DNA of 63,147 nt, counting the filler, from Globobulimina sp. (Eukaryota): assembly GCA_003354225.1 (NCBI GenBank). It is 54 parts of 54 records of this genome, joined end to end, with 100 filler letters (N's around TTAATTAATTAA, not from the genome) between each part and the next. Parts side by side here need not be neighbours in the genome. Positions count along the whole stretch, not along the records: positions 35,153 to 36,223 come from PIVH01024302.1; 53 more parts are not named here. One strand, written 5' to 3'. The position numbers were made by a program, and so were the translations under genes. Shown in pieces: positions 29,198-37,394 of the stretch (position 1 is the stretch's first letter; each line of letters opens with the position of its first letter). Below the pieces are notes generated by a model that did not search any database, was not told the origin of the DNA, and saw only the letters and a list, made by a program, of their open reading frames with translations.

Positions 29198-29297
29198 NNN
29201 NNNNNNNNNNNNNNNNNNNNNNNNNNNNNNNNNNNNNNNNNTTAATTAATTAANNNNNNNNNNNNNNNNNNNNNNNNNNNNNNNNNNNNNNNNNNNN

Positions 29298-30065
29298 CGT
29301 TTTATATTGATCCAAACATAAAATATAATGAAATAAGAATATTAGCGGTCTGCAAAGTGAGGCATTCTCCTTTGATATAATTAGTTGTTGATTTATTTCA
29401 TTTGTATCATTAATATTTAATTTTTTGATAAAATGTTGAAATAACAATTTTGTGCTTAGCATAACGCCGATATAATTGCATAAATTTAATATGGATTTGC
29501 ATAATATCGCAGTTGAGATTAATACGCGAAATGTTTGTAACTGTGGATGGGACACCGAATAAAATGAGATTATCATTGCTTTGATATCGTTGGGAAAAAA
29601 TCTTTGTACGCATAATTTATAGACATTGACATTTGAATTATGAATAAAATGTGATATTATTAATTCCATTGTCAATAATCCGTGTTGTTGGGTCTTTGTG
29701 TTTGTGTTATAACGTCTGGTTCTTTGTGGTGAATGTTTTGATTTATTAAGACCTAATTTAATAATCGGTGCTAATGCACTGCCATTATAACGACTTAATC
29801 GTATAATTAATTTCGACATTTTGTCATTTAAATCGATTAATATGTCATAGGCACCAGAGTCTTGTGATAAATTACTGCTGTTATTATTGATATCAATCTC
29901 ATCGTCGCGTATTATAGCCACGTTGTCATTTATTTCTGTTTCTAATAATGGGCTATTGTCATCTGTTTGCGATGGTGGTGCCAATATTTGTTCAAAATCA
30001 TATTTTTGCTCATATGCACTGTAAATATCTGCTAAAAGAGGATCTTTTGAAGAGTTACAACCCAT
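29298..30065 (-). CDS. N-acylated (MGCNSS) hypothetical protein with the recurrent F-box-like motif
   Basis: ATG-initiated ORF open to the contig end; contains LIISHFIH...FPNDIKAMIISFY. Confidence 0.65.
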
Positions 30066-31539: not shown

Positions 31540-31639
31540 NNNNNNNNNNNNNNNNNNNNNNNNNNNNNNNNNNNNNNNNNNNNTTAATTAATTAANNNNN
31601 NNNNNNNNNNNNNNNNNNNNNNNNNNNNNNNNNNNNNNN

Positions 31640-32120
31640 CATCATCGACTTCATAAGTGTTGTATTCCTGGGCAAAATTGGGCATGACCCGTAGCCGATT
31701 TTCTGTTTCTGCTTTCTCGACTTGGGTTTCTGCACAAGTGTTGCTTATTTTGGAAAAATCGGGCATGACCCGTAGACAATTTGACGCTTTTTCCATTTGT
31801 CCATGACTCTGAGAACCGGCCGAAGTACCATATACTCCTGTGCCATCTCTTTCTTCTGTTGTTGCGTCTTTTCTAGACGAGTCTTTGGGAGTTGTTGATG
31901 CAGAGTCGTTCGACTCTGGGTCTTTTATCCTCTTCTGTGATGCAGAGCCTAATGACTCTGGGTCTTTTATCCATTCGATTGATGCAGAGCCTAAGGACTC
32001 TGGGTCTTTTATCCGTTTGTTTGATAACTTTTGACTTTTCTTGACTGTTCTTGATGTTTCTCCAATGAAATTCAACATACCATAGCTGCCACCAATGTTG
32101 TAGGATGAACGATTTGCCAT
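31640..32120 (-). CDS. Repeat-containing hypothetical protein (3 x IKDPESxxSAS, 2 x LRVMPxF)
   Basis: In-frame tandem repeats of about 42 bp at 31890..32015. Confidence 0.5.
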
Positions 32121-32810
32121 TGTTGTTGTAGACGAGGTTGACCAGGACTTTTGGATAAATAATATACAAATATAATAAACACAATAAAATAAGTCGTTTG
32201 CCTGGTATGGAGCCGATTCCCTAGTGTATGTAGTGTAACAAAAGGTAATAGAAAGGTTATTTACTACATAATAATAATAATAATAAGACAAGAGCAGCAC
32301 AAAAGGGAATCATAACAATCATAATCGTATCAGACTAAAAAGTAATAGTCAGCTGATAAGATGAGCAGCCTCCAAACTGGTTGCTGACATAGGCCAGTGC
32401 GTCTTGACAAGATAACGCTTTATGCAGCTACTGTGGAATTAGCCAGATAACAACAACACAATGATCCGTTGTGGTCTTTCTACAACATCCCTCCCCGCTA
32501 AGATGAAATCCAGGGGATTTGATCGATGATTACTGGATCATGGTGTTGATTTCAAGATGTTGATTTTCAGGTGTTGATTAATTACCACTTGTGTTAATTG
32601 AGCTTTTGGAACTAGATATGTACAGGAATAGCTGGGTTTATTTCCATATATAAACCTTGTCGAACCGCTTTTGTAAAGTATTTTCAGATGGGCATACTGC
32701 TATACCTTGTNNNNNNNNNNNNNNNNNNNNNNNNNNNNNNNNNNNNNNNNNNNNTTAATTAATTAANNNNNNNNNNNNNNNNNNNNNNNNNNNNNNNNNN
32801 NNNNNNNNNN

Positions 32811-33463
32811 AAAGTGCAATTGACTGTGCAGGAGTTGACCGATCAAATGTGGAGTTCGCGCAACTTTTTAGCCAATGTGAAGGCGGAAGATGGCAAATAT
32901 TTGACTGCTTCGTGCGGTTATCGCGGCCCCATCGCGACGCAGGAAGTGGACGACGAAGTGGCGAAGATCCAGCAAAAGATGGCGGATGACTTTGTGACGT
33001 GGATCCCAAACAATATCAAATCGTCCATCATCACCGTAGCACCAGAAGGCTGCACAATATCTGGGACGTTTGTGGCAAATACCACTGCCATTAAAGGTAT
33101 TTATTTAATTATTATAATATAATAAATATATACGCAAATTCGCACTAATAATTTCTATATAAATAATTTATATAAGGCGTATTTCAGAGAATCTCTGCGC
33201 AATTTGCCAAAATGTACAAAAGAAAGGCCTTTTTGCATTGGTATAAAGGCGAAGGAATGGACGAGATGGAGTTCCAAGAGGCGGACAAGAATGTTCGTGA
33301 TTTGATCACAGAGTATCAGGACAAACAGGACGCTGTCGTCGATTTGGAGGACGAGGACGACGATGAGGATGATGACGAGGATGAAGACGAGGACGAGGAT
33401 GGGGACGAGGATGCGGATGAGGATGGTGGTGATGAAGAAGAAGAGGATGAAGAAGATTTCTAA
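32811..33463 (+). CDS. TUBB2: Type-2 beta-tubulin (Foraminifera/Retaria), C-terminal part; intron 33097..33176
   Basis: [97 protein letters not shown], then a long acidic tail. Confidence 0.93.
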
Positions 33464-35152: not shown

Positions 35153-36223
35153 CGATTGAATGTATTTATGATGGACCTCAAAAACAAGCAAAATGGGGAA
35201 TTGTGGGATAGCTTACAAGAATATGGCATGTCTGATGATTATATCATGGTTTCTGACAATGCGCAGAATGAAGAGAATGAAGAGAAAAAGGAAAACCCTC
35301 AGCGGTATGATATAAATCATAAAATATATTAATATATAAATAATATAGGCGCAAAATCGCAAAATATATAATTGAAATACACTAAAAACAGCAATGTGAG
35401 ACAAGATAATACGATCCATCCACTAACGCCGGAATACAGTGAGCATACATTGCGCCGTTTGAATGCTGTGATTGGTAAAACCGGCGTGAATATGATCGAC
35501 CATTACAATGAAACGGTATATTTGGGTCAGATTCATATGAAAAACGCGATTTTGAATGATGAGTTTCAAAGTTGTGTACAACGCTTATTATTGGACATTG
35601 CCGCTGAGGACAAAGCATTTGAATATTATTATCGTGCCGGACCTATCAAGAAATTGGAACGCTGTTTGACTAAAATTGATACAAAGTACATCGATGCACA
35701 GTTTCCATCGTCTGGGCAAATATTGGACATTGCGCGTTGTACGGTGATATTTTGCGATATGGGCACAATGTTAAAAGGCTTAACAATGATTGAAGACAAA
35801 ATAAATAATGGCGACGGCTATTGCATTGAACGCATATTACGCAAAAAGAACTTATTTCGAGATTATTCCTTCGAGAATCCGGCATATTGCGATGTGAAGC
35901 TTAATGTGGAAGTGTTTCATCAGTCCGTTGAGAGCATATCGATTGTGGCCGAGATCCAAATTATGGTGCAATTTATGACTGAATTTAAGAAGGAAATATC
36001 ACACAAATTGTACCAAATTCAAAGACAAGAAGAACATTTTGAGAAAATGATGAAGATCGCAAAGAAGCTCACTGAATTTGAGCCGAATTTTACTGCGATT
36101 TTGGCGACGGGAAAAGTGATCGATTTATGCAAATATATGATTGAGCATATTATGGATACGCAGTTTGTGCTTAATTATCGGTTCGACAACAAAGCGAATA
36201 TATTCCATGGGATTTTCCGTTTC
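35153..36223 (+). CDS. RelA/SpoT synthetase-like nucleotidyltransferase domain protein, internal fragment; intron 35305..35391
   Basis: GPIKKLERCLTK, ILDIARCTV, RKKNLF, YCDVKLNV and VAEIQI motifs; the upstream exon splices in frame (CG|C). Confidence 0.75.
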
Positions 36224-36323: not shown

Positions 36324-37394
36324 ATACGTACGTTGGGGTACGATTTGGTTCGTGTTTATGAACCGTACCACCATCCACCGGAAGATAATATTGATGCGCA
36401 GTTATTTGATAATATGCGTTGCGAACAATATCCAGTCCCAACGCCCAAACCATTCGATGTTACTCAGGCAAATATAAAAATTGATGCTGCGAAAGAGCCT
36501 ATATATAATTTATTAAATCAATATCAAAATATAGTTTCAAAAAATGAGTTTGAGGCAGGAATCATACCGGATGTTAAATTTCACATTGAATTCAAAGATA
36601 ATGTCGATACGACACCGATTAGATCCTCGCGATATCGTTACAGTCCAAAGCATTTTAAAGAGATGAAAAGACAGATAGATCACTTAAGAGATATTAAAAA
36701 AATTGAATATTCAAACTCCGAATGGCGTTCTCCATTGTTTCCAGTACCAAAAAAGACCGGAGATATACGGATTGTTTTTGATTATCGGCGTTTGAACGCA
36801 ATAACGAAAAACGACCGATTTCCATTGCCAAATATAACACAATTACTGCACACATTCCATGGTAAAAATATCATTACATCTTTAGATATGAAGGGCGGAT
36901 ATTGGCATATTCCGCTCGACGAAGAAACAAAACGATTAACGGCATTCTGGTTTAATGGGCATTTATATCATTGGAATTTTATGCCCTTTGGTTTGAAGCA
37001 GGCACCTAATTATTTTCAACGTATAATGACCAAAATATTCGGCCATTTAGATTTTGTCACCGTTTATATCGATGACATTGCGATTGCATCCAACTCCATT
37101 ACGCAGCATCTGGAGCACCTAAAGGTTGTCTTTGATCTTATAATAGCACATAATATAAAGCTGCGACTCGACAAATGTTATTGGGCAGCGTCGGAAACCC
37201 AATATTTAGGGTTTTTGGTTGATAAAATTGGAGTGCGAGTGACTGATAAATATAAAAATAAAGTGATAAATGTACCGCGCCCCCGGTCGAAGAAGCAATT
37301 GATGCGATTCTTGGGTCTCATTAATTATTTGCATCATTTCATACCAGATATGAATAAATATACAGCTCCGCTGCGTGAAATATTAAAAAAAGAC
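36324..37394 (+). mobile_element. Ty3/Gypsy LTR retrotransposon pol (RT domain)
   Basis: WRSPLFPVPKK..RIVFDYRRLN, LDMKGGYWHI, MPFGLKQAP, YIDDI, YLGF and RFLGLINY. Confidence 0.97.

Follow-up and report, generated by a model that had tools for sequence, protein, structure and literature searches.

A window of 63,147 nucleotides from the foraminiferan Globobulimina sp. (GenBank assembly GCA_003354225.1) holds, at positions 35,153 to 36,223 (record PIVH01024302.1), the interior of a gene for a large protein with a RelA/SpoT-type nucleotide synthetase domain. Its intron and its homologues establish that the locus is a nuclear foraminiferal gene. On the evidence of its sequences, the gene belongs to a real eukaryotic synthetase family, A, which has not been described before in the literature that we found and which has a sister family, B. 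The domain belongs, clearly by motifs and profiles, with Apk1, Apk2 and RelV in the exported alarmone synthetase (EAS) group. The best explanation of the whole, to which we assign a rough probability of 0.45, is a cytosolic, repeat-regulated synthetase of Apk/RelV type that makes guanosine tetra- and pentaphosphate, (p)ppGpp.

An intron-containing foraminiferal gene

The window strings together 54 contigs, each some 1071 bases long, with linkers of N between them; adjoining contigs are unrelated and carry no gene context. The gene fills one whole 1071-base contig (C24302), and no further family member was found in the window beyond positions 35153-36223. Its parts are:

35153..35304, + strand: coding exon, truncated at its 5' end where the contig begins; the last helix of a conserved helical region and an acidic linker
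35305..35391, + strand: GT-AG intron of 87 nt, the best of nine stop-free splices against three homologues
35392..36223, + strand: coding exon, truncated at its 3' end where the contig stops; 35393-36223 translates into P0001 (277 amino acids)
36077..36223, + strand: start of the C-terminal region, which runs on into ankyrin repeats in the Nonionella homologues

The intron has 18% G+C, against 38% in both exons, and contains an in-frame stop; its removal leaves 328 open codons with neither a start nor a stop. Eleven stop-free GT-AG pairs can be drawn on the contig, nine of them in the frame of P0001, and among these nine the 87-nt splice scores highest against each of three Nonionella stella proteins (P0002, P0003 and P0004) that run unbroken across the splice junction; they come from a EukProt set that we take to be transcriptome-derived. 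By this comparison the 87-nt intron is predicted to be spliced out in frame, as a preliminary description of the stretch had it. Exon 1 aligns with P0002 from residue 418 onward (57% identity, 49 aligned residues) and exon 2 along its whole length (79% identity); from the pre-synthetase region onward the contig gene is 78-81% identical to its Nonionella homologue. The closest proteins have 847 and 966 residues, with C-terminal ankyrin repeats, so that the larger protein of the preliminary description is found as well. Three other short contigs resemble P0002 toward its N- and C-terminus (62-78% identity) and are probably the remainder of the same gene; a 78% identical ankyrin piece is carried by contig C35792.

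A contig this short, whose nearest non-foraminiferal relatives are phage and bacterial, might be a contaminant from either source or a chance reading frame. That is very unlikely: the intron is of spliceosomal type; of 10 paralogue loci tested, 6 gain 23-105 bits in profile score when a 54-72 nt AT-rich GT-AG intron is taken out (three show no gain and one offers no candidate); and among 20 family A homologues looked up all 14 that carry a name are foraminiferal (Nonionella, Bolivina, Elphidium, Ammonia), the other six being metagenome records. The earlier claim of a eukaryotic gene stands on these same three supports.

A predicted RelA/SpoT synthetase fold and its active site

The AlphaFold model of P0001 residues 1-228, made with 120 sequences, has a predicted local distance difference test (pLDDT) score of 93 and a predicted template-modelling (pTM) score of 0.88; the modelled domain has the RelA/SpoT synthetase fold, a central sheet with flanking helices. 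A Foldseek search with the model places RelP first (E 1.6e-7). Ranks 1 to 11 of a VIA-align search among 48,161 chains are synthetases of RelA/SpoT homologues (RSH) throughout (Z 8.2-13.0), and other nucleotidyltransferases, at Z of 7.2 or less, lie below them. RelP scores Z 13.0 (root-mean-square deviation, rmsd, 3.3; 168 residues aligned), SaEAS 12.0, CapRel 11.4, SpoT 8.2 and FaRel 6.5; Tas1, at Z 10.8 (rmsd 3.6, 150 aligned), has the highest identity among the structural matches, 21%. The RSH-type fold that the motifs had led the preliminary description to propose is thus what structure prediction returned.

Profile searches gave a different answer, and of the suggested check against RelA_SpoT only the structural side came out positive. 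P0001 matches neither the Pfam RelA_SpoT model (PF04607) nor, in any meaningful way, anything in Pfam, NCBIfam or PHROGs. With PF04607, 2 of 26 paralogues register (best E 0.079), and one family B locus reaches 23.1 bits against a cut-off of 27; the Pfam model used for RSH surveys misses this branch. A phmmer search of P0001 against PDB sequences gave a chance hemocyanin match only, a profile search with the full-length alignment (A2) was swamped by ankyrins, and tblastn of one paralogue domain against a phage collection yielded only noise at E 7-9.

The motifs PIKKLER, LDIAR, YCDVK and EIQI occur in P0001 in this order, which is that of RSH synthetases. The RSH spacing claimed along with the order does not hold at syn2, which reads D-x-x-R, as in Apk1, Apk2 and RelV-type rows, in place of the canonical D-x-x-x-x-R. 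The domain and its motifs, with residues numbered along P0001, are:

35399..35407, + strand: RQD motif, at the head of the synthetase domain's N-terminal extension, which is specific to the family; conservation of 90% or more in alignment A3 (74 sequences)
35489..36043, + strand: RelA/SpoT synthetase-fold domain of the predicted model, about residues 33-217
35642..35689, + strand: syn1, P84-x-K86-x3-R90-x3-K94-x4-Y99, a Tas1-like pattern; putative donor-ATP phosphate binding, by analogy with FaRel2
35726..35737, + strand: syn2, D112-x-x-R115, putative Mg-binding catalytic Asp and adenine-stacking Arg; 100% in 145 aligned rows
35840..35851, + strand: R150-x-K152-N153, ahead of the G-loop, 99-100% conserved; KVKN in the RelV type
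35885..35905, + strand: syn3, Y165-x-D167-x-K169-x-N171, putative acceptor-base Tyr; D167 and K169 in 146 of 146 rows
35951..35959, + strand: syn4, E187-x-Q189, putative catalytic Glu; E187 100%, Q189 97%
35987..36025, + strand: helix motif K199-x4-H204-x2-Y207-x3-R211; K, H and Y common to Apk1, Apk2 and the RelV type

Conservation was read from 146 of 152 stored proteins (six were too short or matched weakly), in an alignment whose database rows had been chosen for likeness to the query. K86, D112, R115, N153, D167, K169 and E187 are invariant in it, and R90, K94, Y99, R150, K152, Y165, N171, Q189, K199, H204, Y207 and R211 are 97-99% conserved. All 12 core residues are kept in 26 of 26 aligned genome paralogues (four of the 30 fetched loci, their domains split by introns, were omitted), as they are in 136 of the 143 database rows that align in full. 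D112, Y165, E187, Q189, K86 and K94 align with all nine RSH groups compared; the correspondence of the catalytic Asp and Glu (D112, E187) with those of RSH synthetases, implicit in the earlier motif assignment, is therefore borne out. Papers are cited here by PubMed Central (PMC) number, and what is said of them refers to the parts available to us. In FaRel2, K66, S70 and K74 bind the donor phosphates (PMC11782079); by analogy, K86, R90 and K94 would bind donor phosphates and D112 would hold Mg, while R115, E187 and Q189 would read the donor adenine and Y165 would stack on the acceptor base.

None of the canonical motifs R-x-K-x3-S, D-x4-R, Y-x-S-x-H and E-x-Q-x-R is present as such in family A. 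Three departures are shared with Tas1/Apk1: Pro at position 84, where canonical RSH has Arg; Arg instead of Ser at position 90; and the D-x-x-R. The RelV-like row agrees in Arg90 and D-x-x-R and carries Gly at position 84. The residues that follow D-x-x-R are C-T, as against Y-T or N-T in Apk synthetases of the adenosine counterpart, (p)ppApp. The syn3 Asp is that of RelV-type enzymes, the Lys at Tyr+4 is peculiar to family A, and syn4 reads E-x-Q-x-L/M, whereas family B has His after E-x-Q in 15 of 18. With the canonical syn1 Arg and syn3 His missing and all scores under the Pfam and NCBIfam cut-offs, the domain could be a nucleotide-binding pseudo-enzyme or scaffold. It is hard to give that reading much credence: the same substitutions are found in active Tas1, and the catalytic Asp, Glu and basic residues are kept among sequences only about 30% identical. 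The domain is probably active.

Placement among RSH synthetases

The only PDB sequence that the family profile matches is Tas1, at E 1.1 and over syn1-syn2. Scans with a pattern drawn from the query's syn1 gathered 62 bacterial and 69 viral loci, which fall into homologues of Tas1 (L080, E 6e-212 to Tas1) and a group with GYRD at syn3, mainly on phage contigs. The foraminiferal profile matches 62 of 126 motif-bearing frames at E <0.001 (best 4e-14) and no other frame among 6987. Many of the phage contigs (L096-L164) carry their GYRD-type domain at the end of or within large proteins, some of which show weak ParB-like or head-morphogenesis matches. Apk2-like and canonical sets were added for the comparison, which is without plastid RSH (RSH1-4) and verified FaRel or PhRel and has bacterial rows only for long RSH; the labels 'CapRel-like' and 'RelP/Q-like' are our own, given by motif, and are presumably apt.

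In hhalign comparisons family A matches the GYRD set (phage/Vibrio) at 99.6% probability, the Apk2-like set at 92% and Apk1 at 90%, against 9% or less for the canonical groups; family B also reaches 94% with the pooled canonical set. The comparison was repeated downstream of syn2 because the GYRD and Apk1 sets had been picked on syn1: there GYRD retains 99% and Apk2-like 93%, Apk1 drops to 16%, and canonical groups stay at 8% or less. The tree (LG+G4; 90 sampled rows, 154 columns) joins families A and B (99/93) and places them among GYRD rows (88/87), then with Apk1 (96/88) and Apk2; the whole assemblage is split from canonical RSH at 100/99. An approximately unbiased (AU) test rejects a clade of foraminiferal sequences with bacterial long RSH (p=0.009). 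Of the phylogeny proposed earlier, then, separation from the long RSH is obtained on bacterial rows and the branching order is not. The Apk/RelV type is clear because profile, motif and tree grouping agree; donor and branching order are left unsettled by AU tests.

In a viral structure library the model's top matches are phage proteins of large size; among the first five, two bear the label RelA/SpoT (one of a Sinorhizobium phage). Two giant-virus proteins in BFVD (A0A7D3R1N1 and A0A3G5A8M0, of Fadolivirus and Hyperionvirus) also match, at E of about 0.001, a hint of RSH-like domains in viruses of protists.

Guanine or adenine

Among the exported alarmone synthetases, the product is (p)ppApp for Apk1 and Apk2, (p)ppGpp only for VpEAS/RelV and AaEAS, and both for SaEAS (PMC12691689); G-x-N at syn3 is the Apk signature (PMC12226406). 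Tas1 reads GYSGVN, the Apk2-like set Y-x-G-x-N and the dual SaEAS GYKGLN. In the supplement of PMC12691689 the entry for V. parahaemolyticus RIMD 2210633 reads GYRDLN and that for Amycolatopsis azurea GYRDLQ; by strain and species names these would be the assayed VpEAS and AaEAS. One Vibrio row of our comparison, L173, equals VpEAS in length and comes close to it in motifs. Asp167 thus appears, on a thin basis, to side with the guanine-specific enzymes, Y-x-D as a marker of (p)ppGpp being a correlation drawn in this analysis and no published rule. If the domain is active, a guanine nucleotide is by a narrow preference the acceptor to expect, although the invariant Lys at Tyr+4 leaves the product open. 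Y-x-D versus Y-x-G-x-N is, at the least, a lead on guanine/adenine specificity.

The preliminary description had reasoned the other way, from YxDxK in place of YxSxH to a product other than ppGpp. That argument is not supported: the ppGpp-only VpEAS and AaEAS carry Y-x-D, and the makers of (p)ppApp carry Y-x-G-x-N, unlike the foraminiferal D-x-K. Our own first reading, 'Tas1-like, so not ppGpp', was dropped on finding ppGpp-only enzymes in the same group (PMC12691689).

An unlikely alternative is an immune effector: a Tas1/Apk-like (p)ppApp synthetase, restrained by its repeats, that would when triggered drain ATP/ADP and so arrest or kill all or part of the cell. Tas1 is the sole PDB sequence match of the family profile and the top structural match in identity, Apk1 and Apk2 branch beside the foraminiferal/GYRD group, a clade with Apk1 passes the AU test (p=0.246), and expansion with domain shuffling looks like defence genes; but syn3 is D-x-K without exception where Apk enzymes have G-x-N, and the likeness to Apk1 falls away downstream of syn2.

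Less likely again is another acceptor (a tRNA or RNA 3' end, or an unusual nucleotide) in a site formed by K169, N171 and the RQD extension. These residues are invariant or family-specific and lie on the acceptor side, FaRel2 anchors tRNA by an N-terminal extension (PMC11782079), and the fold is common to CapRel and FaRel. A small positive patch at the acceptor site, binding tRNA, is a feature of the tRNA-pyrophosphorylating toxic small alarmone synthetases (PMC11782079). The CapRel-like set, however, keeps YxSxH and is distant by profile (9% or less), and for characterised EAS-group enzymes the available parts of PMC12691689 report no RNA modification.

Family size, partners and location

P0001 matches 40 contigs of the Globobulimina genome (43 matches), and the domain of family B, which surfaced through a Pfam search, matches 36; together the two occupy at least 64 contigs, a lower bound that may contain alleles or split genes. 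A library of 50% clusters gives 485 matches at E <=0.001. Family A proteins are typically laid out as ankyrin, helical region, synthetase and repeats: among 42 long ones, ankyrin is found in 36, RCC1 in three, WD40 in one and nothing in five. The partners of family B (16 selected proteins) are SAM, UBA, Kelch, WW, ZZ/C1, Tudor, MATH, lectin, ubiquitin-Hint or FKBP. The count of paralogues and domain partners that had been suggested earlier thus has an answer for this genome and the homologues compared, with ankyrin, RCC1, WD40 and SAM in it.

Within family B, locus L031 (C287, 1-2019, minus strand) and L174-L185 read GYRDLLIN, often next to SAM; 19 contigs of this genome match at 50% identity or more. 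A subfamily of A (L025, L026, L020, L027; P0116, P0119, P0123, P0153, P0155) has a WD40 propeller in L025, and its database members begin with an N-myristoylation-like MG motif, which suggests membrane anchoring in that subfamily.

A crude hydropathy scan flags a hydrophobic segment in 6 of 86 long Met-starting homologues. P0002 is one of the six, probably because of an N-terminal extension that is absent from P0003 and from the genome piece. Export domains (PAAR, MuF, LXG-type) do not appear among the top Pfam matches of 42 long homologues, the contig gene's own 5' end lying beyond the contig edge. Some foraminifera keep plastids, and the enzyme might act on targets of prokaryotic type (for example retained diatom plastids, symbionts or prey), delivering ppGpp to them or making it inside them. 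Exported enzymes occur in the nearest bacterial group (PMC12691689) and ppGpp regulates plastids (PMC10107265), yet 80 of the 86 long homologues have no hydrophobic leader or membrane segment and P0003 opens with a charged coiled coil, and we regard this as improbable.

Family A synthetases are preceded by a conserved all-helical region (L014:1-540; FSDD..L.W, DW.WL..Y.L.S.IW). Its model (pLDDT 92) has no Foldseek match at E <=0.001, a best Z of 6.5 and no ESM Atlas match at 0.9 or above; that it is a decayed HD hydrolase was considered, and the fold searches could not show it, an outcome that establishes neither novelty of fold nor a difference. No HD, TGS or ACT domain was seen in the homologues, and the HD motif is present in none of 204 stored proteins. 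HD_4 matches twice in the assembly: L032 (C42220, 230-604), on a gene-dense 606-base contig of prokaryotic or phage appearance, and L033 (C8555, 2-334), a fragment. In the ESM Atlas the synthetase domain lies near unannotated, mostly eukaryotic clusters (0.95-0.96) and near a mainly viral one (0.93, RelA_SpoT on 24% of members), a lead to relatives beyond foraminifera.

A proposed function, and what weighs against it

The explanation that we favor runs as follows. The gene would encode some 850 residues in the order coiled coil, degenerate ankyrin-like unit, helical region, synthetase and ankyrin repeats, the synthetase being a 3'-pyrophosphokinase of Apk/RelV type, in the exported alarmone synthetase group. 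The donor site (K86, R90, K94, R115, Q189) would hold ATP, with Mg on D112 and E187, and Y165 would stack a purine nucleotide, most likely GDP or GTP, whose 3'-OH would receive the pyrophosphate, to give (p)ppGpp. The protein would be cytosolic and would switch on only once a partner or stress cue is bound by its repeat domains; (p)ppGpp could then serve as a signal or, made at a high rate, as a GTP drain, and the family would amount to a set of sensor-synthetases behind a nucleotide signal of stress or defence. Gene structure, predicted fold, residue conservation, family size and domain partners are what the analysis shows; activity, a guanine acceptor, a place in the cytosol, autoinhibition and the role in the cell are inferred. 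Tight control is to be expected because unregulated members of the EAS group are toxic in the E. coli cytoplasm (PMC12691689) and a synthetase from bacteria kills flies (PMC7666150).

A number of observations pull the other way. The best structural scores go to RelP and RelQ rather than Tas1. The GYRD and Apk1 sets were selected by the query's own syn1 pattern, the union with GYRD has a support of only 88/87 in a tree whose root is not fixed, and AU tests reject neither a clade with all canonical RSH (p=0.354) nor the one with Apk1. The Y-x-D rule has two or three enzymes behind it; swapping motifs in Apk2 abolished activity and left specificity unchanged (PMC12226406); and the mapping of motif to product is loose because AaEAS makes ppGpp despite having lost the syn2 Arg and the syn4 Gln. 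Family A, with its own K169, N171 and RQD and with no His after E-x-Q, is unlike RelV. A matching hydrolase was not found in the 204 stored proteins or the fragmented assembly, neither HD_4 match being clearly a eukaryotic Mesh1. Finally, the 78-81% identity to the Nonionella homologue fits conserved signalling better than an arms race.

We propose, somewhat more tentatively than the explanation just given, that foraminifera took up a phage or bacterial toxin domain of RelV/Apk type and expanded it into dozens of cytosolic sensor-synthetases with ankyrin, RCC1, WD40, SAM, UBA, lectin and other modules, a plastid-independent second-messenger system based on (p)ppGpp or a new alarmone. If this is true, it would be the alarmone counterpart of the expansions of cGAS-like receptors in animals; if the unannotated eukaryotic clusters of the ESM Atlas are related, it would be a broader class, one that the Pfam profile misses.

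To our knowledge, the characterised eukaryotic (p)ppGpp synthetases are the RSHs of plants and algae. In animals, ppGpp and its hydrolase are reported and a synthetase is not known (PMC7666150, PMC10107265). RSH synthetases outside plastids as such were already on record: orphan ones from Dictyostelium, fungi and diatoms were described in 2011 (PMC3153485). Literature searches, with subscription papers outside their scope, found nothing on foraminifera and ppGpp and, by title or abstract start, no description of this family, in keeping with its earlier designation as uncharacterised. The available parts of PMC6881373, PMC10107265, PMC3482391, PMC10083569 and PMC3089054 do not mention it, and those of the PMC12691689 supplements contain none of six eukaryote names tried. 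New here are the checked intron, the Apk/RelV placement, family B and the guanine-leaning motif argument. A large, conserved and apparently cytosolic family in a heterotrophic protist would provide concrete enzymes for asking whether eukaryotes employ alarmones outside plastids.

Elsewhere in the window

Other features drew attention. At 32811-33463 the translation shows the 3' part of a beta-tubulin-like gene that contains an intron and ends in a long acidic tail, and positions 36324-37394 hold an open frame like an LTR-retrotransposon reverse transcriptase, with a YIDD motif. On the minus strand, a frame at 29250-29918 has an MGCNSS-type start and another at 31584-32309 has short tandem peptide repeats (RIKDPES).

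Comparison with known synthetases

The divRel orphans of Dictyostelium, Aspergillus, Gibberella and two diatoms are likewise synthetase-only, eukaryotic and non-plant; by their description, which is the basis of this comparison, they are sporadic and unlinked to a bacterial group, and foraminifera are unmentioned in the available part of the report (PMC3153485). Long RSH enzymes (Rel, RelA, SpoT) share the synthetase fold with the foraminiferal family (Z 8-12) and differ from it in their HD, TGS and ACT domains, none of them seen in the homologues, and a joint clade with their bacterial rows is rejected. RelP and RelQ (SAS1 and SAS2; 6EWZ, 5DEC, 6FGK) provide the best structural scores (Z 12.5-13.0, rmsd 3.1-3.3), and their catalytic Asp, Tyr, Glu and Gln align, at 14-17% identity; their motifs are altered in foraminifera, and their profile probability is about 1-2%.

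With Tas1/Apk1 (6OX6; Z 10.8) the foraminiferal family has in common P-x-K-x3-R-x3-K-x3-(D)Y and D-x-x-R, and the (p)ppApp toxins Tas1/Apk1 and Apk2 (MuF) lie on the same side of the deepest split of the tree; the foraminiferal proteins differ in D-x-K at syn3, and neither a PAAR or MuF delivery domain nor an adjoining immunity gene was seen. RelV/VpEAS and AaEAS share with them a K-x3-R-x2/3-K syn1, K-N/D-R-F and Y-x-D at syn3, RelV/VpEAS also D-x-x-R and E-x-Q, and the group that contains the RelV-like row is the best profile match. The RelV type, with E-x-Q-x-H, is a single domain behind a Sec leader. Family A is multidomain without these and has the Lys at Tyr+4, no His after E-x-Q, the RQD extension, the helical region and repeats. 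The foraminiferal proteins as a whole differ from RelV and AaEAS in being eukaryotic, spliced, about 850-1900 residues long, without a signal peptide and present in dozens of copies.
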